Source: Candidatus Zapsychrus exili
Lineage (GTDB): Bacteria > Omnitrophota > Gorgyraeia > Zapsychrales > Zapsychraceae
DNA: 46,158 nucleotides
Direction of reading: 5' to 3'
Assembly (NCBI GenBank): GCA_030765585.1
Contig: JAVCCJ010000069.1
Coordinates: 1 to 46,158, forward strand
Part shown: one piece after another, positions 1 through 31,412 of the stretch
Numbering within the stretch: position 1 is the first letter of the stretch
Layout: every line of letters begins with the position of its first letter
The notes under the pieces: generated by a model
What the model was told of the DNA's origin: nothing
Databases searched by the model: none
Seen by the model: only the letters and a program-made list of their open reading frames with translations
Made by a program: the position numbers and the translations under genes

Positions 1-3000
1 TATATACGTTAATATTGCCTCACTTTTACGCCAATCTACAACACGAGCATCTTTCAAGCCTAAGGCTTCTTTAGCAGAAGTTACTGCTATTTTTTCTGCC
101 TCGTCAAGTATCAACATTGCTTTATCAACTTGTACTATCTGTTGTTTTTTCTTTTGATCAAACGCTTGTTTTGCAAAATGTAAAATAGCTTCTGCTTCAC
201 TTAATGCTTCTACTCTATCTATTGTTTTTAGACTTTTAGCAAGTTCTCCAATAATTTTAATAGAATTTAATTCATGCTCTGGATTCAAAAGATAAAGTTT
301 GATCATATCTCTTCCTTCATCAGTTACATTTTTATTAGCGAAGCTCTTCACAACTTCTGATGCAATTTGCTCGTCTCTCTCAACATTCTCTCCCAACCGA
401 TCAACTGCCCATCTCTTCATTCTATCTTCTAGCTTTTCTAAAGCTTTTTTACTATTCTTTGCTATCCCAAAGATTCTTACGCCAACTTCTGTAACCTCAA
501 AGGAATTATTGCTTGTAGAATTCCTTTGCGTTCCAAAAGGAATTTCTCTTACATTATAAATAATTTTTATATCTCCAAAATCTCTTTCCATATTCTTTAA
601 AATATTCATTATATTCCAAAACTTAGATTTTTCTAAAATATGAAAATAATTCATTTCCAATTCTGCTTTTGATAAACCATCATATTTCTCTCTTATTGGC
701 TCTCCACCAACAAATGAAAACGGTACATTTGCTTGTTTTATGTCATTAACAGGCTCTTTCCACATAGATAGGCCGCTTCTCAATATTCCCAGCGCCTTGC
801 TTACTTCTCCAAATCTTCCTGAGAATTTAGAAACTGAAAAACCTTTGCCTTTAAACTCTTCTAAAATTCCTCTCTGCTCTCTTAATTCTCCCTGTCTAAA
901 CATTAACCAAAGCCCCAACTCTTCTTTAAGCTTTTTAAGATTCTCTTCAGTATTTTTTGAATTCTTCTTATACACTATTGAAGTTCTATAGACTTCTACA
1001 CCATCAACTTCCCTCCTGCTATACTGAATATCTACTCCGGAGAAATCCTTTTCTATCATATACAATACATCGTTTAGCAACCAAAACTCTTTTACTTGCT
1101 CAGGATAATCTTCCAGTTTTCCACCATTAATATGTATGCTAACAGGATGCATCTTAAATCTTGCTTCACTCACATCATTTGTATTGTACCTATTAACAAC
1201 AATAGCTTTCTTTGTTTTATAATATGCATGTATACCAAGTGCATCATTTGGAAGAATGTTATGATAAAGATTATTTATAGCACCCAAATGTTTTTGACTT
1301 AACATCGCTTGATCAGCAGGATTATCTTTCTCTAATGCTTCAATCTGTTCAATAACGCTTGGCAAATGTTGAGACAATTCTGTTGCCTCCAAAATTTGCT
1401 TTTGTGCCAATAATCCGACTTTTTCTGCAGCATAATAATTATCAGCTTTTATTCTTGCCAAAACCTCACCCTTAATATCCGAAACACTTTCTACCAACTG
1501 AACATAAAATCTTAAAGTTTGAGAAGTTCCTGACGGACGAATGGTTATGTAATTCTTACTATCTCTAAAGTCAGATTCTTCAGTAAGATTCGAATCTTCA
1601 AAAAAGAATCTAATTCCCTCATCAGGAGCATTTTCATAAATTAAATGATCTGCTCTTCCAGATCTAAAATCAACTGCTCCAATAACTTTCCTGCCAGCAA
1701 TAACAAGAGAATCTCCCTCTCCATTTGCTCTTTTTAACCATTCTTCTGTTTTTTCAATAATTTGAATTTTATCAGAAACACCTGCCGCACCTTCAAAAGA
1801 CCCAATCCTCGGCAAGGCTTTATTAGCTGTTGCATAATGTCCTATTTGTCTATAGATACCATCTAGTAGCTCAAACATAGTCGTACCTTGTGATTCTGCA
1901 TACGCAGCTACTTCGGCCAAAAGAACAGATGCCAATGTCCCATCCTTTTCGAAAGTATGTCCAGTCACGCTAAAACCATTTGATTCTTCAAAAGAATAAA
2001 CACGAATTCCATCTTTCATTGCCTCTTCCATAATTTCTGCAAGATATGTAAATCCAACCCAAGTACGAGAATTTGTTAAATAATTTCCTCGATCAACTTT
2101 TCCTGTTTTATCCTTCATCCTTCCAAGAGCATCAACCCCAAATGTTTTTGCAATCTCTGCGATAGCATCTGTTGTCACATGACTAATAGCAACCTTCGTT
2201 TTGTTAAGATCTACCTTTCCTAACTCGCTTCCTCGTTTTAGCTGATACCACAACAATAATGTCCATGCATCGTTTGCAGAAAGCAGACGAGATTTTCCAA
2301 AATATTTCTGCTGATTTACTGGAACTTTTACCTCTATACCTGTTCGATCTGCATCAGGATCTGTTCCTAATAATATATCTAATGCGTCAAATGCATCTTG
2401 CCCATATTCTTCAATAAATTCTCGAACAGCAGCTTTTCCTGCTAATGGATCGCCAGGATCAGGCTGTTCTCCCCATCCAAAGGCAGGAAATAAACCGTCC
2501 AATTTTTGAAGGGCTGTAATAGCTTTATAATTTGTAAATCCTATTTCCTTCAACAATCTTGGCACTGCTTTAAAACCAGCACCATTATATGCAGAATACC
2601 CTATCTGAATTTTATTGCCCCATTCTTCTATTAACGTTTCATCCACCAAAAACTTCTTAACTTGATTAACATGCAGAGTATGCATATCCTCTAGAGGAAA
2701 ATCATAGTATTCTTTGTTTGAAAGCTTTTCGTTCCCACCAAGCCATACGAGGTTCCCAGGCTTTGCCTCTGTAATAGACTTGGCTAATTTTATTTCAGAA
2801 AACTCAACATTAGGGACTTTCGCAGAAACAGCATCTTTAACTTCTTGATTTAACTGAGCTCCATTCTCCAATGTAATTTTATATCCATTATAAATATTAG
2901 GATTATGACTAGCGGACATTAAAATTCCAATATCTGCCTTTACAAGATCTGTTGTAATCCCGTAACTTAATTCTGGGAAAGGGCTAGCTTCATCAAAAAG

Positions 3001-6000
3001 AAATATTTTAAACTCATGCGAAGCCTCTGACTGTCCAATAAATAACCGTGCAACCATATCAGCAAATTCTGCACCAGCAATACGACTATCATAACCAATC
3101 AACACTTTCTTTAATCCATTTTCTTTTGCATATTTGATTACAGCCATTGTTTCAAGAAAGATAACAATATCATTAATCATATTAGGGCCTTTTAAAATTT
3201 TCGCCCCAATACCTTCTTCTTTTAACTTTAAAAGCTCTTCTTTTGTAAAAACAGCCTTACCTCTTACTCCTGCAGTTCCAAATGAAATCAATTGTCGGTA
3301 AGCTTCAATGATTTCATCCCAGCGTCCTTCCTTCATAGCTTCAACAACTCCAGCCTTATAATTTGGAGAAAGCACATCCAACTCTTTAGAAGTCATCCAC
3401 TGCTTAAGGTTACGATACGTATTAGCCGTAGCTTTTCATGAATTCCTTTGTAATCTTTTGCTTTTAATTGCGCATCTAATCTCTTTTAATTTCCTTTCTG
3501 CCTTTGGAAGATATGTCATGTTGATTTCTTCCTGCAATTCTTCTGTCAACATCGCTTGATCTTTATTAAACTTTTCATCAAACTTTCTAATTGTTTTAAT
3601 AGCAGAAGTAGAAAGTCCGGAAGTTTCTAGCTTTGAAGTATCAATAATAGAAGGAAGAACTTTATTTGTTGCAACTTTCTTGCCTAATTGAACTCCCCAC
3701 TGATCAAAAGAAAAAATATTCCAAATAACACCTTCTGCAAATATTTGATGCTCATACATAGAAATAAGATTTCCTAAAGCTCTAGGAGTAACTTTATCTA
3801 TCAATATTGATGTAGTAGGTCTATTTCCTGGAAAAGTTTTGTGTTGAGAAAGCATTCTAAGCCACTCGAGATCAACCGTTTTATTTTTAGGATCAGCTTC
3901 AAGTTCTGCTAATGCCTCCTCTTGGGTTAAACCAAAGGCTAAAGCTTCTGTCTGAGCTATGTAATTAGAGAAGAACTTATCATGATGTCCTTCTACTAAG
4001 TTTTGAGGATTAATAACTCCAATAAAGTCCGCTGGTATTATTCCGCCTTCTATCATTTGATGAAGTAATTGATAAAAAGAATGTTGTCCATCAGTTCCAG
4101 CAGCGCCAAATACAGCGAGTCCAGTAGGGTAATCAACAGGATTTCCATTGCGGTCAACAAACTTTCCATTGCTTTCCATAAAAAATTGTTGTGAGAACGA
4201 TGGAATCAATCCTAAGTTTTCATCATAAGGTAGAATAGCAAAACTTTTTGCTCCCAAGAAATTACCATACCAAATATTTAAAAGTGCTTTTAAAACAGGA
4301 ATATTATCTTGGAATTCTGTTTTTCTAAAATGTTCATCTGATTCCCTAGCACCTTCTAAGAATTCAAGAAAATTATCAAATCCCGCGTATATTGATACAG
4401 ACAATCCAATAGCTGACCAAACTGAATAACGTCCGCCAACCCAATCCCAAAATTCAAACATATTTTCTGTGTCAATTCCAAACTCTTTAACAAGCTTCTC
4501 TGCTGTTGAAACAGCAACAAAATGTTTTTCAATAATTTCTTTATCTCTGATTGGAGTATTCTTAAATAATTTATTAAGCCTAGTATTCATAATTCTTTCA
4601 GCAAAAGAACCAGATGGACTTAACTTACTCAGAAATCTTCTTAATGGTTTCTTGTTATAAGAGTCAAGAACCCATTTTCTTAATGTTTGTGCATTTTGCA
4701 TAGTTTCTTGAGTTGTAAAAGTTTTAGATGCAATAATCACAAGCGTTTCTTCTGGGTCTAAATTCTTCATAAGCTCAGCAACTGCATTTCCATCGATATT
4801 GGAAAGAAAATAAGTATTTACATCGCCTTGTTTGTAAGGTTTTAAAGCTTCAACTGCCATTTTTGGCCCTAATGCAGAGCCTCCGATACCTACATTAATA
4901 ACATTCTTTATTTTTTTACCAGTTGCTCCGCGCCATTGTCCTGATTGAACTTTCTTTGTAAAACCTTCCATCTTATTAAGTACAGCAATAACTTTAGGCA
5001 TTACATCTTCTTTATCAACTAAAACAGGACCATTAGCCGCAACGAGCTTGCCTTCTTCATTCCTTTTAACATTACGAAGTGCAGTATGAAGAACAGCACG
5101 ATTTTCTGTTTCATTTATTTTTGCCCCAGTAAACATAAGCTCAATAGCGCCTTTTAATCCAGATTCTTCTGCAAGTAATAACAAGGCATTTAAGATTGTA
5201 TCATCAATGAGGTTCTTCGAAAAATCCACCTCAAAACCATCATTTAATTTTTTAAGAAGCTTAATTGCACGCTCAGGATTTTCATTAAATAACTTTCTAA
5301 GATCAAGTTTCCTAGCTGCATTTGCTTCTAAAAATTCCCAAGCATCTGTTTTTGCTGGATTAACACGAGGAAGAACGCCTGCCACCATCGCTTGATCTGT
5401 CATATCTCTCTTCAATTTAAAATCATATTTCAACAGGCCTTGTTTTGTTTCATTTACTGCAATTTGGCCAATATCTTTCTTAGCAAGAAGTTCTCTGCTT
5501 GTATGCCCTCTTAATTGACCGACAGTATCTATACCATGTCCCTTTAAAAGGTTCGCTGTTTTTTTAGATATCGGAAGCGCATCTACCGATTGATTGCTTA
5601 TAGGGAAAAGTGCTCTGTTAGCTAATTGATATTCCTCTTTATTGATTCCTTCAATTTTAACTTCGCGTCCGCCAAGATTTTTTTGAAGTGTCATTGATCT
5701 AACAATTCCATTTTTTGTTCTATAAAGAATTCTGTTATTAGTTCCTTTTTCCCAAAGCTCATTTATAGCAGCTGTTCCTAAATCTTGTGTTAAACCATAA
5801 TCAAAATCAGAGATATCGGCTTCTCTTGTTGCATAATCTTCTTTACCTACCAAAGATATCTTTGTGTCCAATGCGACTCCCAAAGGCTCAAGAAGATTAA
5901 CTAAAGTCTTTGCAGCGTCTTTTAATTTTGCATGTCCGAACGAATCTACCTCAATATTTGCTGGAATTACTATATCATCTAAACTAAATTTAATACCTTC

Positions 6001-9000
6001 AGACACTACAACCAAACCATAACCATGCTCTTTGTAAAATTTAGCTAAATCTACTTTTAATTTCTCGATATCTACGGGTCCTTCCTCAGGAATTATTGAT
6101 CTTGTTGCACCAACACCTTCACCTATACCAATAGTTGTAAAACCAGCATCGCGCCCAAAAACCTCTACCACCATTATTCTTCCCAAATTTATCGCAGAAG
6201 TCTTTATTGCCTTTGCTCTTCTTATTCCTTCTTGAACAAAAGTATCATACCCATATGTTGAAACCCCACCTGGAAGAGTTATATCATTGTCCATTGTCTT
6301 AGGCACACCTAACACCATAAGATCTGGAAACATTTTCTGAAGTTTTTGCGCAGCTCCATTTGTATCATCTCCACCGCAAGTGATAAGAGCGTCTAGTCCA
6401 AGCTTTTGAACATTGCCTCTTACTTTTTCTGGAACACCATCCTTTATATTTTTAGTACTAAAAGGATTTGTTCTAGATGTTCCAATAAAAGACCCACCTT
6501 TTTTCTCATGAAGTTCAGCTTCCTCTATATCTATAACTTCTGCTTGTTCTACTAAATTATCCTCCACTAATCCAGCCCAACCACTCTTTATTCCAACTAA
6601 TACTACCTTTTTGCCAGTCTTTTTGCTTAACTCCATTGTTTGTCTTTTAGCTGCTGTTATAAGAGAGTTATGACCTGTTGCAAGCCCACCACCAGTTAAA
6701 ATACCAATTTTTATTACATCTTTATCTAATGTGCTAAGTGGCGCTAATTTCTTTGCCATCATTGCTTGGTCATAAGAAGTAACTTTGGCTAATGATTGTC
6801 TATTATTTTCTGCTGCAATTATTGTGTCTTCTGGTTCTTTTACTGGAGCGAAAATATCTTTTCTTGGCGCATTATAATATGCAACCTTAGCCCCATCTAT
6901 ATGAGCTACTTGAAGCATAATTCTAGTAAGCTGGACAACAGGTATTTCTGTTTTTCCATCTTTTACTATACCTATATCAGAATATTCTCCATCTACTACA
7001 TGTTTCTTAAATTCAAAATTAGCTTTTATTTGTTTAACTAATTTTTCACGAACCAATTCAGACCTTTCCTCAAAATTCATTTCAGCAAGTTCTTTTTCTG
7101 TAACGTCTAGAAACCTAAGCAAACTTTTTGCTCTTAAGATAACTGTATTTGTATTAAAGAATGGGGCATTTGCATGATCAAAATCAGGCTGCAATTCAAA
7201 TCCCTCTTTCATCGTTACTTCGCCTGTTCTATCTTCTTTCTCGTCAACATATTCGACTAAAGTCCCACCAGTCTCAGGCTTTGAGAATATTTCAGCTTCA
7301 ATATAGCCTCCATCAAAAATATTAACAACATCGACTGTTTTGTCTTTTTGGTTAATTACATATCTAACGCCATTTTTCTCTGCGAAACCTTCATATTCAT
7401 TTATTCCATCAAAAGATATTAAATTGTCTCTAAATCGAACAATGGCTTTAACTGCTACTTTTGATTTCTTATGTTTTATGGTGTAAGTTATATTCTTCTC
7501 GGCAAGTAAAAATCCAAAATCGCTTTCGCTTTTGGCAAAATGAGCAAGCATACCGTCATTTTTTAAAACAGCCTGCAAATTATCAATATTAAAAACAGGA
7601 ATATACTCTACTCCTTGAGACAGGGCATCTGAAAACCTTCCAGATATGATAAATGATGCAACTGCATCAAAATGCCCAGCAGGAACTTTTCTCTCTTTAC
7701 CATTAAATCTATAAATACCATCAGGATTTTCTTTTCTTATTTTAGAAGCTAAGGCCTTAAATTTTGACCACTCTTGTTTTTTATAGTTCGCTTCTATTTC
7801 TTGATCTGTTGGAATAAAAGTGTCTATTACCCCCTGAACAAAAAATTTAAAAGTTTTTTCTCTCATTCCATAATAATTCTTTTCTATCGCTAATTGCTCT
7901 TTAAACTCTGCCAATCTCTTTTCGCTCGATAAAAGATACAAGGGCACTTCTTCACCAAAAGTTTTTTCTATCCATCTAATATTCGCAGCTTTTATCTCTA
8001 AGAAATCACCTAATGTCGCATCAACCTTAACAAAAGTTTTTGGACCTCCGAAACGCGTTGCCTCTCCGCCTATCATAACTATTGGAGCAATCTTGCCATC
8101 TCTATACATTTCAGCCTCTGCTTCTACATACGCTTTTTTTGCATTACTATCTAAACTAGACCAATCTATAACTGCCTCTACCTTTGCTGGAACAACTTTT
8201 TTTGGATCAACATTCTTATGAAAACCTATTTTACCTTCATTTCTTTGCTTAACTAGCTGTTGAAAATCTTCAAGAGTAATTGTAGCTGCTGTTATTTCTC
8301 CTTCTTCGGTAATCATCGCCGCATCACTACCTGCTTTAGCAACAAGGATACCTACCTCATCTAAAGACTCTGCAAGATTCACATTTACTCTACTAGTTAA
8401 CCCTGCCACATCAGCCGCTTGTGCTAATAAAGCACTATCAACTGTATTCTCATTAACTGTTTTTATGACTTTACTAAATTCTTGATTCATACCACCAGAG
8501 AAGTATTTCTTAGGTATGATTTCTTGTGTTTCTGAATTGTACTCTTCCTTTATATAGTTATATACGCCTGTCTTAAACGCTTCTAGGTATTGATTATAAA
8601 TTTCTTGCTTTACATTCTTGTTCTCTAAATCTATTCCAGTTACTTTGTTTTGATCTACATATACTTTGCCTAATAAAGATTCTTTTAGATTCATCTTAAA
8701 CCAGGTAGCAAGTATCATAGAATTTGATATTTGTCTTAGAAGAGCAAAGTTTTTGCCTGTATTTACTTCACGTTCTAGTTCAGGGATGATGATTTCTTTT
8801 ATTATTTGAGTAGTAGTTGAATTATCTAATGCAGTGCCTTCTTTAGTTGAAAGATATTCTTTATCTAGTAAGACCTTTAGTTCTGATTCAAGTACAAAAG
8901 CAGAGTTATCTTTTTCATATACAGTTGCAGAACTTGGAACTATCCAAACTCTGTTTAGAGTATCTGTATTTATATCAGTTGTTCCAAACTCTTGCTTTGT

Positions 9001-9519
9001 TCTTTTATATATCTTATTCCAGAATTTCTTACCTGTTTCTCCTTCAGGATGCATTAAAGAAGCTGTTAATTGCTTTAATATATAGTCCTGAGCAAGTAAA
9101 TCACGGCCCATTTCAGTATGACCTAGCTTCTCAGGCATTATTTTATCTGGTTGAGATGGGTTTAAATTGACCCATAATTGATCTTCAGGAACGGTAAGTG
9201 TTGCAAGGAAATATTTGATGAGTTTAAGTGATTCTTCTTCTAATTGCTCCCCTTTTAGCTTATTATCACCAGAATCAACGATAAAGTCGAATTCTAGAGG
9301 ATTTTCAGGATGAATTGTTATCCCTTTTACTATTGTGGGGGTGAAATCATTGCTAAGTGGCACAATTTGCCCTAAAATAGGCATATTTGTACTGTTAAGT
9401 GACACACTCTGCCCATATGAAGGCGGAATAATAGCAGTAAATACAAATGAAAATGCTATAAATGAACATAATACTTTATAAGCTAAACTTGTTTTTGATT
9501 TTGGAATAGAACTCATCAT
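1..9519 (-). CDS. Giant multi-enzyme protein, at least 3173 codons, 3' end beyond the window. Signal peptide, N-terminal domain, UGPase-like, PFK, RpoA-CTD-like, PGI, PGM and unknown modules; interrupted by one in-frame TGA at 3436-3438
   Basis: ORF 3436..9519 plus my manual translation of 3435..1 in the same frame, with no stop to the window edge. AGGAGG RBS at 9529-9534. Hydrophobic N-terminus VLCSFIAFSFVFTAII. Confidence 0.85.
1315..3546 (-). other. Phosphoglucomutase/phosphomannomutase module of the giant protein (absent from the ORF track)
   Basis: Manual translation gives FGTAGVRG, IGYDSR, catalytic SASHNP, metal loop DPDADR, FEESNG, KDG and IRPSGT. Confidence 0.95.
3562..5382 (-). other. 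Glucose-6-phosphate isomerase module of the giant protein
   Basis: ENRAVLHTALR, GIGGSALGP, SKTFTTQET, FWDWVGGRYSVWSAIGL, MESNGK, QHSFYQLLHQ, FDQWGVQLGK. Confidence 0.95.
5410..5595 (-). other. RNA polymerase alpha-CTD-like (HhH) domain within the giant protein
   Basis: LPISKKTANLLKGHGIDTVGQLRGHTSRELLAKKDIGQIAVNETKQGL follows the pattern LSVRxxNxLKxxGIxTVGDL...ELLxxxNxGxKSLxEIKxxL. Confidence 0.7.
5600..6756 (-). other. 6-phosphofructokinase (PfkA family, PPi-type signature) module of the giant protein
   Basis: KIGILTGGG, GGSFIGTSRTNP, GGDDT, PKTMDND, VEVFGRDAG, VVSEG, DSFGH. Confidence 0.93.
6772..8310 (-). other. UTP-hexose-1-phosphate uridylyltransferase (UDPGP family) module of the giant protein
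   Basis: GGEATRFGGPK, PAGHFD, NIDNL, GGTLV, FFNTNT and FAPVK match the UGPase motifs GGLGTRMG..PK, PPGHGD, NIDNL, GGTL, FNTNN, FxPVK. Confidence 0.85.
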
Positions 9520-11208: not shown

Positions 11209-13518
11209 CTAGCACTTAGAATATCCACAACCATAACACTTCAAGCATCCTTCTTCATGATGCAATGGATTACCACAATCAGGACAAACGCCTACCATAT
11301 TCCCTCGAGAACGGCTCTTTTTAGTCGCAGTTGCAGAATGTTCTTTTGTTTGCATAACTAAAACTTTTTGTTCTTGATCTAAAGTATCTTCTGGAGGATT
11401 TTTCTTCATTCTTTTTTCAATTACCTGAGATATAGCATCAGCACAAGACAAAATTCTGACCCCCTTATTCCATGAAGGAACAGGACATCTTATACCGCGA
11501 AGTTGTTCGTGTATTACTTTAGTGTCGATACCTGATCGCATAGCCAAAGAAACTAATCTTCCTATAGCTTCTAACTGACTTGCAGCACAACCACCTGCTT
11601 TTCCCATCTGAGTAAATGCCTCAAAAGGATTTGACTCTTCGTCATAATTTATAGTTACATATAAATTACCACAACCAGTAGAAGCCTTTGTAGTGTGCCC
11701 AATAATTACTTCAGGACGAGGTTTAGGCTCAATAAGCTCTGATATCTTTTTAGCCTCTATTGCAGCATCCTCTGCTACAGCTGCTGCTTCTTTTTTAGAA
11801 ACATTTAATACCTGCTCATCTCTACTTCCATCCCTGTAAACAGTTATACCTTTACATTTCAATTTAAATGCAAGTTGATAAGCTTCTCTTACGTCTTTTT
11901 TAGTTGCTTCGTTTGAGAAATTAATTGTTTTTGATACTGCGTTATCAGTAAACTCTTGAAAAGCTGCTTGCATTTTTATATGCCATTCAGGAGAAATATC
12001 ATGAGATGTTACAAAAATGTCTTTTACATCCTGAGGTATCTCTTCAATCCCATGGATAGAACCTTCTTCAGCAATTTTTTCCATCAATTCTTTACTGTAG
12101 AAACCTCTTTCTTTTGCTATTTGCTCGAATACTGAATCTGTTTCAACTAATTTTGTATTATCCATTACATTTCTGTAATAACAAATCGCAAATATAGGTT
12201 CAATGCCCGACGAGCAAGGACCACCAATTATACTGATTGTACCTGTTGGTGCAATTGTAGTAAGAGTTGCATTTCTAAAACGTTTATTACTTTGACCTTT
12301 TGCAAAAACGCTTGTTTCGAAACAAGGAAAAACACCTTTAGTTTTTCCTAATTCAAGAGATTTAATTCTTGCCTCAGTCAGTATAAACGACATTACTTGA
12401 CGAGCTAAATCAATACCTTCTTGTGAATTATATTTAATACCTAATCTAATCAAAAGAGATGCCCATCCCATAACTCCTAAACCAATTTTACGAGTCTCTT
12501 TAGTTTGATCTTCTATTCTTTTGATAGGATGTCTATTCGCATCAATAACATTATCTAAAAAGTGTGCTGCAGATCTTACAACTTTTTTTAATTTATCCCA
12601 ATCTACTTCACGACCTGCTTCTGTAACTTTTATCATATTAAGCAGGTTGATTGATCCTAAGTTACAACTTTCATAAGGGAGCAATACTTGCTCTCCGCAA
12701 GGATTTGTTGCTTCATAATCTCCTAAAGCAGGTGTTGGATTTTCTGCATTCATAGAATCAAGAAAAATAAGACCTGGCTCTCCATTTTTATGAGCACTTT
12801 CAACAATTAAATCAAAAACATACTGACTATTTATTTTTTTAACAACCTCTTTTGATTTTGGAGAAATTAATTCATAGTCTTCTCCGCTTTCTAAAGCTTT
12901 TAAGAATTTATCAGTAATAGCGACGGAGATATTAAAGTTACTTATCTCTTTATCTTTTTGTTTGCAAGTGATGAACTCTAAAATATCAGGATGATCAACA
13001 CGTAAGATTGCCATATTAGCTCCTCTACGAGTCCCACCTTGCTTTACAGCCTGAGTTGCACCATCAAAAACTTTCATAAACGAAATAGGACCTGAGGCAA
13101 CGCCGCCAGTCTTTTTAACAAAACTATTTTTTTCGCGAAGACGAGAAAAAGAAAAACCAGTACCCCCACCAGTTTTATGAATAATAGCTGTAGTCTTAAG
13201 TGTTTCAAAAATTGATTCCATAGAGTCTTCAATAGGAAGAACAAAGCAGGCGCTCAATTGCCCTAAAGGTCTTCCTGCGTTCATTAGCGTCGGAGAGTTT
13301 GGCAAGAATTCTAAATTTACCATCATATCGTAGAATTCTTTTTCTTTTGCTTCTCTCTCTTTTTGAGATGCGCCATAATCTTTATCCACATCCGCTATAG
13401 TCTTAGCAACCCTAGTAAACATTTCTTCTGGGGTTTCAATAACTTTACCATTTTCATCTTTTTTAAGATATCTTCTTTCTAATACTGTAAGGGCGTTCTC
13501 TGAAATTTTGCGTGACAC
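11209..13518 (-). CDS. nrdJ: Class II (B12-dependent) ribonucleotide reductase with C-terminal TSCPD/Zn-ribbon region
   Basis: PNSPTLMNAG, LSACFV, GGTRRGANM, TNPCGEQ, SCNLGS, TIAPTGT, VYRDGSR, CPDCG...CYGCGYSKC; AGGAGG RBS and GTG start. Confidence 0.93.
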   Translation of the reverse strand: MSRKISENALTVLERRYLKKDENGKVIETPEEMFTRVAKTIADVDKDYGASQKEREAKEKEFYDMMVNLEFLPNSPTLMNAGRPLGQLSACFVLPIEDSMESIFETLKTTAIIHKTGGGTGFSFSRLREKNSFVKKTGGVASGPISFMKVFDGATQAVKQGGTRRGANMAILRVDHPDILEFITCKQKDKEISNFNISVAITDKFLKALESGEDYELISPKSKEVVKKINSQYVFDLIVESAHKNGEPGLIFLDSMNAENPTPALGDYEATNPCGEQVLLPYESCNLGSINLLNMIKVTEAGREVDWDKLKKVVRSAAHFLDNVIDANRHPIKRIEDQTKETRKIGLGVMGWASLLIRLGIKYNSQEGIDLARQVMSFILTEARIKSLELGKTKGVFPCFETSVFAKGQSNKRFRNATLTTIAPTGTISIIGGPCSSGIEPIFAICYYRNVMDNTKLVETDSVFEQIAKERGFYSKELMEKIAEEGSIHGIEEIPQDVKDIFVTSHDISPEWHIKMQAAFQEFTDNAVSKTINFSNEATKKDVREAYQLAFKLKCKGITVYRDGSRDEQVLNVSKKEAAAVAEDAAIEAKKISELIEPKPRPEVIIGHTTKASTGCGNLYVTINYDEESNPFEAFTQMGKAGGCAASQLEAIGRLVSLAMRSGIDTKVIHEQLRGIRCPVPSWNKGVRILSCADAISQVIEKRMKKNPPEDTLDQEQKVLVMQTKEHSATATKKSRSRGNMVGVCPDCGNPLHHEEGCLKCYGCGYSKC

Positions 13519-18787: not shown

Positions 18788-20167
18788 CTAACTAGAAACA
18801 ACTTCCTGTTTAATTAAAAATTTCTTTCTATTCACAAATTCTTTTGAAATATTTGTTATGTCTCCTGCACCAAGTGTCATAACGATATCACCTTCTTCTG
18901 CAATATCAATCAAACGCTCTATAATATCATCTTTTTTTAAGTAAGTAGCATTTGGATTATTTTCTTTGATTGCATCAACTAACTTTTCAGATGTAATCCC
19001 ATCAATTGAACTCTCACTCGCCGCATATATATCTGTAACAATTAATTGATCACAATCATAAAAGCTTGTCTTAAATTCATCAAATAAAAATTTTGTCCTA
19101 GAATATCTATGAGGCTGAAAAACAACAATTAACTTATTTTGTTTTAAATTATTTGCTGTTTTTAACGTTTCTTTTATTTCTGTTGGATGATGACCATAAT
19201 CATCGACAATTTTAATGCCACCTATATCTGCTATAAGTTCAAAACGCCTTGAAACTCCAGAGAAGCTATTAAAACTAGAGCTTATTGTGTCAAAATCTAT
19301 TTCCAAACTTAAACCTAAAGAAATACAAGCCAAAGCATTAAGTATGTTATGCCTGCCGGGAGTTCTTAAAACAACTCTTCCTAAATCTTCAGCTTCATAC
19401 ACACAATTAAAGCTGGAAGAGAAATTATCAAATTCTATATTGTTTGCATAAACATCACAATCGTTACAAAATCCATATGTCTTATATGTGCGTCCACTTG
19501 CTTTAAGAAGAGTCATCAAATTTTTATCTTCGCCAAACGCAATAATAAGCCCATCATCTTTTGTTTTATCAATAAAATTCCTATAGGCATCTAATACGCT
19601 ATTAAAATCTTTATAATAATCTACATGTTCAAAATCAACATTTGTAATAATTGAAAAGTCTGGAATAAATTTAAGGAACGATCCATCGCTTTCATCTACC
19701 TCTGATACAAAATATTTTCCTTCACCAAGTCTTGCATTAGATGATATTTGATTGATTATACCTCCGACTGCAATTGTCGGTTTTAAATCAGCTTCAATAA
19801 GCAAGTTTGATATCATCGACGATGTTGTTGTCTTGCCGTGTGCACCAGCAACAGTAATTGCAATATGATCTTTCATCAAATCAGCTAATAACTCTGCTCT
19901 TTGTTTGATATCAATACCTCTTTGTTTTGCTTCTAGTAACTCAACATTATCGTCTCTAATAGCAGAAGAAAAAATAACCGAATCAGCCCCTTCAATGTTT
20001 TTTGCATCATGTCCAATAAAAATAGCTGCGCCTTTAGATTTTAACTTATCTATCATGCTATTCTCTCTGACATCAGAACCACTTACAGCGTAGCCCTTGT
20101 CAATAAGAAGCACTGCAAGCGCCCCCATACCTATTCCACCAATACCAATAAAATGACAATGTTTCAT
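18788..20167 (-). CDS. murC: UDP-N-acetylmuramate-L-alanine ligase
   Basis: HFIGIGGIGM, GAHGKTTTS, EVDESDGSF, DDYGHHPTE, FQPHRYSRT; start overlaps the upstream stop (ATGA). Confidence 0.96.
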   Translation of the reverse strand: MKHCHFIGIGGIGMGALAVLLIDKGYAVSGSDVRENSMIDKLKSKGAAIFIGHDAKNIEGADSVIFSSAIRDDNVELLEAKQRGIDIKQRAELLADLMKDHIAITVAGAHGKTTTSSMISNLLIEADLKPTIAVGGIINQISSNARLGEGKYFVSEVDESDGSFLKFIPDFSIITNVDFEHVDYYKDFNSVLDAYRNFIDKTKDDGLIIAFGEDKNLMTLLKASGRTYKTYGFCNDCDVYANNIEFDNFSSSFNCVYEAEDLGRVVLRTPGRHNILNALACISLGLSLEIDFDTISSSFNSFSGVSRRFELIADIGGIKIVDDYGHHPTEIKETLKTANNLKQNKLIVVFQPHRYSRTKFLFDEFKTSFYDCDQLIVTDIYAASESSIDGITSEKLVDAIKENNPNATYLKKDDIIERLIDIAEEGDIVMTLGAGDITNISKEFVNRKKFLIKQEVVSS

Positions 20168-20949
20168 TTTCTTTCTAAATAATTTAACCAAGCTTTATTA
20201 AGTCTTTTGAGATTATTAAATCTAGGATAAATAGATTCTAAAGTCCATTCAAAAGGACGACCTTTTTCTAACGCTCTGCAAAATCTAACAAATTTTAACT
20301 TACCTAAATCATTAATCATATAATTTACTATACTCGCAGATTCTGCATAAAAAAGATTTATAGTAGCCTGGTCTGTCTTTCTATACAATTTTAAATTTGT
20401 AAGTTCGTCTAGCGGTATAAATCTCTCATCATCTATTGCCTCTTTTACAGCCTTATGTGCGCCCCACCTTCTTGCTTTTTCCTGATACATTGCAATACCT
20501 TCTTCAAACCACTGCGGAGCCTCTGCTTTAAATCCTACAAACTCTCTAAATATAATATGACCTAATTCATGAGGAAGAACTGAATCAAAGAAACCATGCG
20601 CTGCAGGAAAAGTACGAATAGTTTTTGATTTAGCAAAAGCTAAACCATGCGACCACGGAGCACGCGTTGCAGCCTTTTTATAATCATCGGCGTCATTATA
20701 AATATAAATTTTTGCTCTTTCGTCCCAAGTCCAACCTTTATAACGAACAAAACCTAAATTTTTTGAGATCTCATCATAATACTCTTCTGCTGCCTCTTCT
20801 ACCGCATAAACAAACTCTTCAGGAGCTTCTTTATAATAAATAATAAAATGTCTTTTCTTGTATTCTTTCCAAACTCCTTTTGCAAAAGAAAATTTGCCTA
20901 TAAAAAATAATAATAAAACGATACATATTAATAAGATTTTCTTTTTCAT
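20164..20949 (-). CDS. Secreted zinc metallopeptidase (MA-like, HExxH)
   Basis: Signal peptide, LPHELGH, WFEEGIA, FYAES. Confidence 0.8.
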   Translation of the reverse strand: MKKKILLICIVLLLFFIGKFSFAKGVWKEYKKRHFIIYYKEAPEEFVYAVEEAAEEYYDEISKNLGFVRYKGWTWDERAKIYIYNDADDYKKAATRAPWSHGLAFAKSKTIRTFPAAHGFFDSVLPHELGHIIFREFVGFKAEAPQWFEEGIAMYQEKARRWGAHKAVKEAIDDERFIPLDELTNLKLYRKTDQATINLFYAESASIVNYMINDLGKLKFVRFCRALEKGRPFEWTLESIYPRFNNLKRLNKAWLNYLERK

Positions 20950-30511: not shown

Positions 30512-31412
30512 CTAAATCCTCTCCGCTACTCTAAATCTTGCGCTACGTGCACGCAGGTTTTCATTTACTTCCTTGTCAGTTGGTCTTAAAGGCTTCTTTG
30601 TTATTATTTTTGCTTTTAAATCCCCAGCTAAGACCTTAAATTTATTCTTAACAATTTTATCCTCAAGAGAATGAAATGCGATAATGCCTATACGACCACC
30701 TGGATTTAAGAAATCAAAACACTTATCCAATACTATCTCTAGTGATTCTAATTCTCTGTTTACTGCAATTCTAAAAGCCTGAACCGTTCTTGTTGCTGGA
30801 TGTATCTTATATCTTGCCTTCATGCGAGGGATAGCTCTTAGGATAATCTTGCTCAACTGTTTTGTGGTTGAAATGGGTTCCTCCGCCCGCATCAAAACTA
30901 TTTTCTGAGCTATCCTCTTGTGCCATTGTTCTTGACCGAAATCATTAAGTATTTGAGATATCTCTTGTTCAGATAAAGAATTAATCAAATCAAAAGCAGA
31001 TATCTTACTTCCCTGATCCATTCTCATATCTATTGGACCATTATGTCTTATACTAAAACCTCTCTCTGCATTGTCTAATTGTAGGCTTGAAAGCCCCAAA
31101 TCAAGCAATATTCCGTTCGAGAGACTTTATTTCTAAATTGTTTAATACTTTATCTATATTCTTAAAATTGTCCTGTACTAAATCACACCGACAATCATAC
31201 TGTTCTAAATCTTTTTTTGCCAACTCTAAAGCTTGCTTATCACGATCTATCCCTATCAATCTTCCGTCAGATCCAAGAATCTTTGCTATTTCTTTTGAAT
31301 GTCCAGCTAAACCCAATGTTCCATCTAAAAATATTGATCCAGGTTTTAAATTTAAATATTCAATTACCTCACCCAACATAACGGGAGTATGAATATTTTG
31401 TGTTCCTTGCAT
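30512..31412 (-). CDS. rsmH: 16S rRNA m4C1402 methyltransferase, split by a +1 frameshift at about 31116
   Basis: HTPVM, DGTLGLAGH, then DLGLSSLQLD, DMRM, HPATR, FHSLED, RARSA. Removing one A restores LDGILLDLG. Confidence 0.92.

Follow-up and report, generated by a model that had tools for sequence, protein, structure and literature searches.

Organization of the locus

The window analyzed here, 46,158 nucleotides (nt) in length, is the whole of contig JAVCCJ010000069.1 (C83) in the genome of Candidatus Zapsychrus exili (GCA_030765585.1), a bacterium of the phylum Omnitrophota. This genome comprises 2.04 Mb in 129 contigs with a G+C content of 34%, is 96% complete, and is labelled G000 in our analysis, with C80, C24 and the like denoting its other contigs. 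All long open reading frames (ORFs) of the window are carried by the minus strand, and two of them, named P0001 and P0002, encode a series of sugar-phosphate enzymes between which there stands a short peptide, D-x-A-M followed by a hydrophobic residue (D-x-A-M-h). This peptide joins the modules of a large undescribed protein family, whose members are composed of a signal peptide, a head of 330 amino acids (aa), swappable cargo and a tail marked by the sequence GGIDLN, and the form of this delimiter is a property of the genome and not of the individual paralog.

An earlier sequence-only reading of this DNA had placed seven copies of the motif along a single giant ORF. All seven are found where it had put them, on the minus strand, but the giant ORF is actually two, of 2027 aa and at least 1132 aa, which share a frame and are parted by a single TGA (3436-3438). 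Because the two are in the same frame and homologs of the PGM module run unbroken across the position of the TGA, with similarity opening right after it at internal positions of long proteins, P0001 and P0002 are read as what appears to be one gene interrupted by a stop. Its features are the following.

3436..9519, minus strand: ORF P0001, 2027 aa; signal peptide, head, UGPase, PFK with a helix-hairpin-helix (HhH) domain, PGI and the start of the PGM module, with the in-frame TGA at its end
9409..9519, minus strand: signal-peptide-like N-terminal segment, residues 1-37 (sequence and hydropathy scan), the sole hydrophobic segment in both ORFs
8440..9408, minus strand: head domain, P0001 residues 38-360, to just beyond KKYFSGG, common to 16 paralogs in the genome
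8425..8439, minus strand: DSALL, delimiter-like, opening the post-head mini-module (sequence); in the model a helix that packs against the head begins here
8326..8424, minus strand: post-head mini-module between two delimiters, consisting of a helix, the strand VNVNLA and a low-confidence stretch (alignment and model)
8311..8325, minus strand: delimiter DAAMI, residues 399-403 (motif match), modelled with a confidence score of about 40
6772..8310, minus strand: UGPase module (Pfam UDPGP PF01704, best stretch residues 418-565)
6757..6771, minus strand: delimiter DQAMM, residues 917-921, encoded by GACCAAGCAATG (motif match)
5398..6756, minus strand: PFK module (PF00365, residues 937-1225) with the appended HhH domain (residues 1309-1362)
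5383..5397, minus strand: delimiter DQAMV, residues 1375-1379, including GATCAAGCGATG (motif match)
3562..5382, minus strand: PGI module (PF00342, residues 1432-1971)
3547..3561, minus strand: delimiter DQAML, residues 1987-1991, including GATCAAGCGATG (motif match)
3436..3438, minus strand: in-frame TGA within the PGM module, where homologs are continuous
1..3396, minus strand: ORF P0002, at least 1132 aa, truncated by the contig end; PGM and two unannotated modules, with no signal peptide or head of its own
1315..3435, minus strand: PGM module downstream of the TGA (PGM_PMM I-III), its conserved region opening 13 codons before the ATG at 3396
1300..1314, minus strand: delimiter DQAML, P0002 residues 695-699, including GATCAAGCGATG (motif match)
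127..1299, minus strand: unannotated module, with no Pfam or NCBIfam match
112..126, minus strand: delimiter DKAML, P0002 residues 1091-1095 (motif match)

From the segment at 9409..9519 we infer an export signal. Residues 1-345 of P0001 comprise this putative signal peptide and the conserved head as far as KKYFSGG, which makes the protein a member of the family. The motifs of the window separate the head, UGPase, PFK with its HhH domain, PGI, PGM and two unannotated modules, and about 440 aa of P0002 after PGM have no family match in Pfam or NCBIfam. No tail is visible in the window because the contig stops, at base 1, before P0002 does. As a side observation, the HhH domain (5434-5595, minus strand) resembles that of the RNA polymerase alpha C-terminal domain (PF03118, E = 1.7e-5) and is joined to PFK without a delimiter.

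A delimiter at the borders of modules

That D-x-A-M is enriched in this genome was borne out when all ORFs of at least 100 aa (714,156 aa) were scanned: D.AM[LIVM] was observed 96 times against 12.5 expected from composition, and 79 to 82 of these copies fall in about 26 ORFs of one paralog family, at approximately one per 437 aa. Outside the family there are 14 copies, which is near background, and the window ORF pair (3,172 aa) has six strict motifs where about 0.06 would be expected at the composition rate. A chance origin of the motif is ruled out by the composition expectation together with shuffles. Conservation runs from the Asp to position +6, with none upstream of the Asp, which gives the extended motif D-[KQNE]-A-M-[VLIM]-[ATS]-[DE]-[KE], and its Met does not vary within this genome.

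The motif had also been described as marking module boundaries, which our analysis supports, as none of 41 copies in ten family proteins lies inside a Pfam-matched stretch (p = 4.9e-5; such stretches make up 21.5% of the 18,682 aa) and copies in the window lie just before the start of PFK and PGI module homology. In the case of PGI, homology to other PGI modules starts at VLPRVNP, immediately past the delimiter. The idea that the motif keeps out of folded domains stood in one part and not in another: it agrees with the 41 copies and with DAAMI, which lies in a stretch of the head model with a predicted local distance difference test score (pLDDT) of about 40, but DSALL begins a helix modelled on the head and is not in a free linker. 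Those joints of the closest paralog, on C80, that seemingly lack the motif hold variants of it, DQAMT where PGK meets enolase and DAAIP where the two GAPDH copies meet. Matches were also seen in a giant ORF of 9,937 aa on C24, which has four strict ones against about 0.17 expected; three of these (residues 5767, 6088 and 6262, approximately) conform to the extended motif as well.

The carrier family

Sixteen ORFs of the genome share their N-terminal 340-400 residues at 42-89% identity. With the head as query, 8058 representative clusters among 1.84 billion gave a match (6220 at E <= 1e-30), and the match always began near residue 1 among the 150 matches listed; a search of a protein atlas with the head returned Omnitrophota clusters only. 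Many members end in the GGIDLN tail, itself preceded by a delimiter, which is found in 112 of the 150 listed representatives and in the C80 paralog. Family proteins range from 0.4 to 5 thousand aa and have 4-15 delimiters each. Head matches are present, at 1-65 per genome, in 28 of 31 relatives, including all 18 in the same family and nine of 12 in other families of the order; at E <= 1e-20 the head is found in none of 40 other genomes in an even sample of the phylum, this genome being the only one of the 41. In the genomes sampled, then, the family was found only in this bacterium's order. Neither the head, nor the tail, nor the last modules are matched in Pfam or NCBIfam. The tail, as seen for instance in residues 2905-2991 of the C80 paralog (L013, C80:14983-23955), has a moderately hydrophobic Pro/Asn stretch (PVIINITP..NLPLLLG), which lies about 45 residues before the C-terminus and gives way to an acidic end; this stretch could be a sorting or anchoring signal.

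L013 is the closest paralog of the window gene, with a head of 89% protein identity to the window head, and the two share a 1216-bp block of 91% nucleotide identity which includes about 90 bases upstream of the start codon. Its cargo consists of two GAPDH copies, PGK, enolase and class II aldolase, and together the window gene and L013 encode eight sugar-phosphate enzymes, among them those for most steps of glycolysis. An upper half (window) and a lower half (C80) of glycolysis are thus paired on near-identical heads. Stand-alone PFK, PGI, PGM-like, GAPDH, PGK and enolase genes are present elsewhere in the genome, at 24-37% identity, and because of these ordinary copies the cargo is regarded as a second enzyme set. 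This set is probably exported. Cysteine makes up 0.136% of the family against 1.12% genome-wide, an eight-fold depletion (0.15% in P0001 and 0.0% in P0002).

Dialects of the delimiter

At the site before the PGI module, homologs have DxAM, DSALL or DAALL, DAAQT, SSSP[VM], or RSE[VA]R, the last of these ahead of the PGI module in P0016 and P0017. Among the 150 listed representatives DxAM was counted 216 times against 15.3 expected and SSP[VIML] 162 times against 9.4, and the two are nearly mutually exclusive: 43 proteins have at least two DxAM and no SSP, 36 at least two SSP and no DxAM, and a single protein at least two of both (Spearman correlation of the counts -0.54, p = 6e-13). A survey by genome, covering 69 family genes from 24 related genomes, showed that ten further genomes use DxAM and that four use [SA]-S-S-P-[VILM], with 52 SSP against one DxAM in 19 proteins; in the family of the present genome there is one SSP in 34,021 aa. 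Other genomes have DxA[AV], D[PL]A[LM]LP, DxSM-L or DxLMLG. SSP occupies the positions of DxAM, twice after the head, around the mini-module, and once before the tail.

In a tree of 68 heads the SSP rows need at least five changes, and the three members of one SSP genome (G056) sit in three well-supported clades, each with DxAM partners. It follows from this spread that the paralog lineages of the head are older than the split between dialects. No column of the head alignment separates the dialects. In the RpoB tree the DxAM, SSP, DxAA and DxSM genomes all fall in one family-level clade (SH-aLRT support 99); the LigA tree was poorly resolved, and ribonucleotide reductase, present in only eight of the 31 relatives, was not used for the species tree.

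Codon usage and exchange of modules

Three of the delimiters had been noted to share the identical 12-mer GATCAAGCGATG, from which a DNA crossover site was proposed. The window contains three copies of the 12-mer and no more (1303-1314, 3550-3561 and 5386-5397), where shuffles expect 0.01 and none of 100 reached three. On its own the identity is not significant when set against the codon usage of the motif itself, as three of four DQAM sites sharing any one encoding has a p of about 0.07. The DNA identity of the three copies stops at the motif, their flanks being unrelated and with no extended homology, and six encodings occur among the 20 DQAM sites of this genome, in which the x codon and third positions vary. 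GACCAAGCAATG, which encodes DQAMM in the window, is the predominant delimiter encoding of the C80 paralog.

Between genomes the residues of the motif are kept with different codons. The Ala is encoded by GCG, GCC or GCA depending on the genome (GCG 12/12 in G058 and 18/22 in G050, GCC 12/15 in G045), and the first Ser of SSP is TCN in 19 cases and AGY in 10. For the second Ser, the SSP genomes use TCG in 21 of 29 cases against a background of 15% (p = 7e-12), and in the present genome 76 of 91 motif Ala codons are GCR against 58% in other Ala-Met pairs (chi-square p = 3.5e-6). Identical encodings within a gene amount to 17 pairs against 9.4 expected, a number reached by 58 of 5000 permutations (p = 0.012); when the two glycolytic genes are left out this excess vanishes (8 against 5.75, p = 0.19). 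The three identical 12-mers of the window belong to this pattern. Module order among homologs, which the crossover proposal supposed to be variable, is indeed not fixed, PGI and PGM modules having differing neighbors, and 43% is the most of the cargo that any one homolog covers. Where DNA blocks are duplicated, within a family gene or between two, one of their borders is often found a few bases from a delimiter, and the head block of 91% identity to C80 has its end between the two delimiters that follow the head.

Kept in different codons from genome to genome, the residues of the motif are shown to be under protein-level selection. As a primary function the crossover site does not stand, given the different codons across genomes, the Ser in both TCN and AGY, the free x codon and the unrelated flanks. 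A weaker form of it does: we conclude that the delimiters bound units of duplication and exchange, and that turnover of these units keeps their DNA similar within a genome, because module order varies, duplicated blocks end at delimiters and codons are homogenized; the three 12-mers alone do not show it.

Structure of the head and the post-head mini-module

The head was modelled with AlphaFold2 from a 67-sequence alignment, and the model is confident (pLDDT 79.8, predicted template modelling score 0.82). No fold match was found, neither by Foldseek against the PDB (best E = 0.12) nor by VIA-align against 48,161 chains, where the best Z was 3.0 and the top rows included two lipid-binding-type proteins at noise level. 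There is no invariant His, Cys or HExxH in the head in the paralog alignment. The head was considered as a protease, or as the reader of the delimiter, and was rejected for having no catalytic-looking invariants, no fold match and no column that tracks the dialect.

In the model, the delimiter-like DSALLAQAADVAG at the DSALL site forms a helix lying against the head (block-mean pLDDT 92, 87 and 80 over model residues 311-340), and it is followed by a strand added to the sheet and then by the low-confidence stretch with DAAMI. Mini-modules of 20-36 aa between two delimiters recur both after the head in paralogs and inside proteins. A complex prediction of the head core with a 45-aa stretch around DQAMM scored 0.00, which is no answer and has no weight for or against binding, and the full-length fold of a 786-aa family member had a pLDDT of 55.7, too low for judging whether tail and head dock.

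What may read the delimiter

Our favored reading, to which we give a little less than an even chance, is that of a genome-specific delimiter between modules with a trans-acting reader, most likely an envelope endoprotease. The delimiter would be a seven-residue linear peptide, D-[KQNE]-A-M-[VLIM]-[ATS]-[DE], this genome's version of a family-wide separator, and the motif would co-evolve with a factor that lies outside the individual carrier protein and most likely cuts the exported polyprotein into separate enzymes; the same delimiters would delimit the units that are duplicated and swapped between paralogs. In one possible register D-x-A-M would be cut between Ala and Met and S-S-P-V, equivalently, between Pro and Val. 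A processing or protease site appears to be the best fit, and cleavage is our best guess, as the motif is short and linear, DAAMI lies in a low-confidence stretch and a different motif occupies the same positions elsewhere. The existence of genome-specific versions suggests that some factor of the cell, perhaps a processing protease, is the reader. A more far-reaching form of the proposal, which we regard as possible but rather doubtful, is that tens of exported polyproteins are cut by a dedicated envelope protease and that the delimiter code is rewritten genome-wide as the specificity of this protease changes, for example from Ala at P1 (before Met in D-x-A-M) to Pro at P1 (before Val in S-S-P-V); this would also give the cleavage points of the giant proteins.

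A number of observations weigh against the favored reading. Among 139 ORFs within 4 kb of family genes there is no recurrent neighbor beyond one pair. Peptidase_S8 was not found in the genome and Peptidase_S9 gave one weak match, in a 295-aa ORF, other protease families not having been searched. DSALL, as described above, packs onto the head in the model as part of a folded helix. In seven genomes from other families of the order, none of the motif types counted was seen; by eye, G060 among them has D-x-L-M-L-G, and the rest have no recognizable delimiter. A single origin of the SSP dialect is possible, being compatible with the RpoB tree, and the genome-specific homogeneity of codons means that copying at the DNA level contributes and could produce uniformity without any reader. 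Lastly, the export of the family is predicted from its sequence features, and cleavage itself from sequence patterns.

The delimiter may instead be read but left uncut, as a docking or hinge peptide, for instance a short helix or strand, with the head, a scaffold, a chaperone or some part of the secretion machinery as its partner, so that the enzymes stay strung between head and tail; we think this unlikely, although the modelled helix of DSALLAQAADVAG on the head with its following strand, and the recurrence of 20-36-aa mini-modules between two delimiters, speak in its favor, and genome-wide dialects would suit any trans-acting reader, protease or not. Against it, no column of the head co-varies with the dialect, and the SSP genomes have at the same place a proline motif which would not form the same helix. 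PGI, PFK, GAPDH and enolase are, moreover, obligate oligomers of differing symmetry, and judging by textbook structures uncut chains joining them would cross-link. A translocation signal for each module, put forward in the earlier reading, is another candidate role.

Two further explanations dispense with a reader of the peptide. In one, the role is primarily at the DNA level, the delimiter being the translated footprint of a recombination or microhomology site for cargo shuffling and the peptide having no role. The differing neighbors of PGI and PGM homologs, the limit of 43% on cargo covered by any homolog, the 1216-bp head block and duplicated blocks which end at or near delimiters, and codons homogenized per genome (entirely GCG in G058, mostly TCG in SSP genomes) and modestly per gene would all be in keeping with this; it is made improbable by residues conserved across genomes in other codons, with one Ser in both codon families, by the six encodings, the unrelated flanks and the p of about 0.07 for the 12-mer, by the loss of the per-gene excess without the two glycolytic genes, and by conservation that reaches [ATS]-[DE] past the motif with a first and second codon position pattern. 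In the other, the Met of the motif would be an internal start, from which each module is also translated alone in the cytoplasm. The Met is invariant here and the motif lies just before the PFK and PGI homology starts, but a Shine-Dalgarno-like sequence is found upstream of 17.6% of 91 motif ATGs, as compared with 17.0% of 9215 internal ATGs and 52.2% of 1053 first ATGs of ORFs; other genomes replace the Met by A, L, Q, I or V, in part through the non-start codons GTT and GTC, and what is conserved of the preceding Asp and Ala is the amino acid and not the bases. Internal translation starts were rejected on the Shine-Dalgarno-like frequencies and the non-start codons in relatives, and we consider them extremely improbable.

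Relation to known systems

Polymorphic toxins have demarcation motifs, VENN in CdiA and PxxxxDPxGL in Rhs, at the border of the constant part and the swappable module; this border is the point of cassette exchange and in Rhs is also a site of self-cleavage. The likeness to the present family lies in a short conserved peptide at the border of an exchangeable module, but here the motif is at every joint, 4-15 per protein, and its sequence differs from theirs and changes between genomes. In place of a C-terminal toxin with an immunity gene, the cargo consists of metabolic enzymes and the neighbors are housekeeping genes: these are the Pfam annotations of the other window ORFs of at least 150 aa, among which there is no immunity gene. 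Viral polyproteins are split into their units by short protease-specific sites that are uniform within a genome and differ between lineages with the reader. The present proteins are like them in having many functional units in one chain and genome-uniform short sites, and unlike them in being cellular, exported (as predicted) and present as tens of paralogs per genome, with no protease domain recognized in the chain, whose cleavage is putative. As compared with the core sites of integrons or shufflons, the codons here are biased within a genome yet not fixed, and between genomes the residues are kept in other codons.

Closest to the present family in phylum and content are the long and giant proteins of Omnitrophota treated in two preprints (10.1101/2023.11.21.568195; 10.64898/2026.06.07.730766), whose texts describe long, exported or membrane-associated chains of sugar-metabolism enzymes, among them PGM, hexokinase and aldolase. 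For the giants it is stated in the earlier text that cleavage into pieces is suspected and that the cleavage points are unknown (West-Roberts et al., 2023, bioRxiv 10.1101/2023.11.21.568195). The proteins of both preprints, as described in their texts, are mainly of several thousand to more than 100,000 aa, whereas the present family is of 0.4-5 thousand aa, its head and tail are constant and each of its joints has a delimiter. Neither preprint text mentions the head, the tail or the linker motif ("linker" occurs in neither, and "motif" and "cleav" not in the 2026 text), though their supplements might list such architectures. The literature searched contains no description of the motif, the GGIDLN tail or the family, and none of polyproteins in Omnitrophota; the accessible part of PMC8542988 has nothing relevant to the family. 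What is new here are the genome-wide dialects and the greater age of the paralogs relative to the dialect split, together with the evidence from codons and from the breakpoints of duplications, the confinement of the family to one order and the pairing of upper and lower glycolysis.

A delimiter with genome-specific versions provides concrete candidate cut sites in the long proteins of Omnitrophota and opens to testing a question that has been stated as unknown. It also supplies a rule by which annotation and structure prediction can divide the family proteins into modules. Should there be a reader, the change from DxAM to SSP or the reverse among close relatives is a natural experiment for finding it, by way of a specificity pocket that changes with the dialect. 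Automatic annotation labels such proteins by one cargo domain, for example as "glucose-6-phosphate isomerase", and therefore pathway reconstructions can count exported copies as cytoplasmic. The presence of a second, Cys-poor glycolytic set with signal peptides beside the cytoplasmic one raises the question of what role sugar-phosphate metabolism may have outside the cytoplasm in possibly host-dependent bacteria.

Interrupted family genes and other genes of the window

Of the 103 junctions at which long ORFs of this genome meet in frame, only six have TGA as the stop. Upstream of the TGA in the window, similarity in an alternative frame is not significant, and frame 1 aligns through the stop. 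Two public DNA runs cover parts of the locus at a depth of only 2-5. One public contig of 151 nt (depth 2.1) keeps the TGA and has one extra base in each of four A-runs at 3432-3461, which could reflect a difference between strains or homopolymer errors in one or the other assembly. Further interrupted family genes were seen on C73 (6257-14507), C119 (3378-11319), C39 (1-8892) and C67; in two of these cases the head-bearing and tail-bearing ORFs are in different frames and overlap, by 83 and 38 nt, and two have in-frame stops, TAA and TAG. The interrupted genes may be pseudogenes, assembly errors or something programmed. A head-bearing ORF at the end of C43 (...SESDPNI) overlaps the start of the tail-bearing ORF C80:25323-27791 (ESDPNIM...), and by this overlap the ends of the two contigs probably join within one family gene.

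Among the other genes of the window, a Peptidase_MA_2 (PF13485) gene of 261 aa (20164-20949, minus strand) lies between murC-like and murG-like genes of a cell-division and cell-wall cluster. The MraW methylase ORF (30512-31108, minus strand) covers profile positions 97-309 of 309, its N-terminal third being missing or in another frame. The ribonucleotide reductase with a TSCPD domain (11209-13518, minus strand) has close homologs (E <= 1e-50) in those eight related genomes mentioned above and is thus of patchy distribution.

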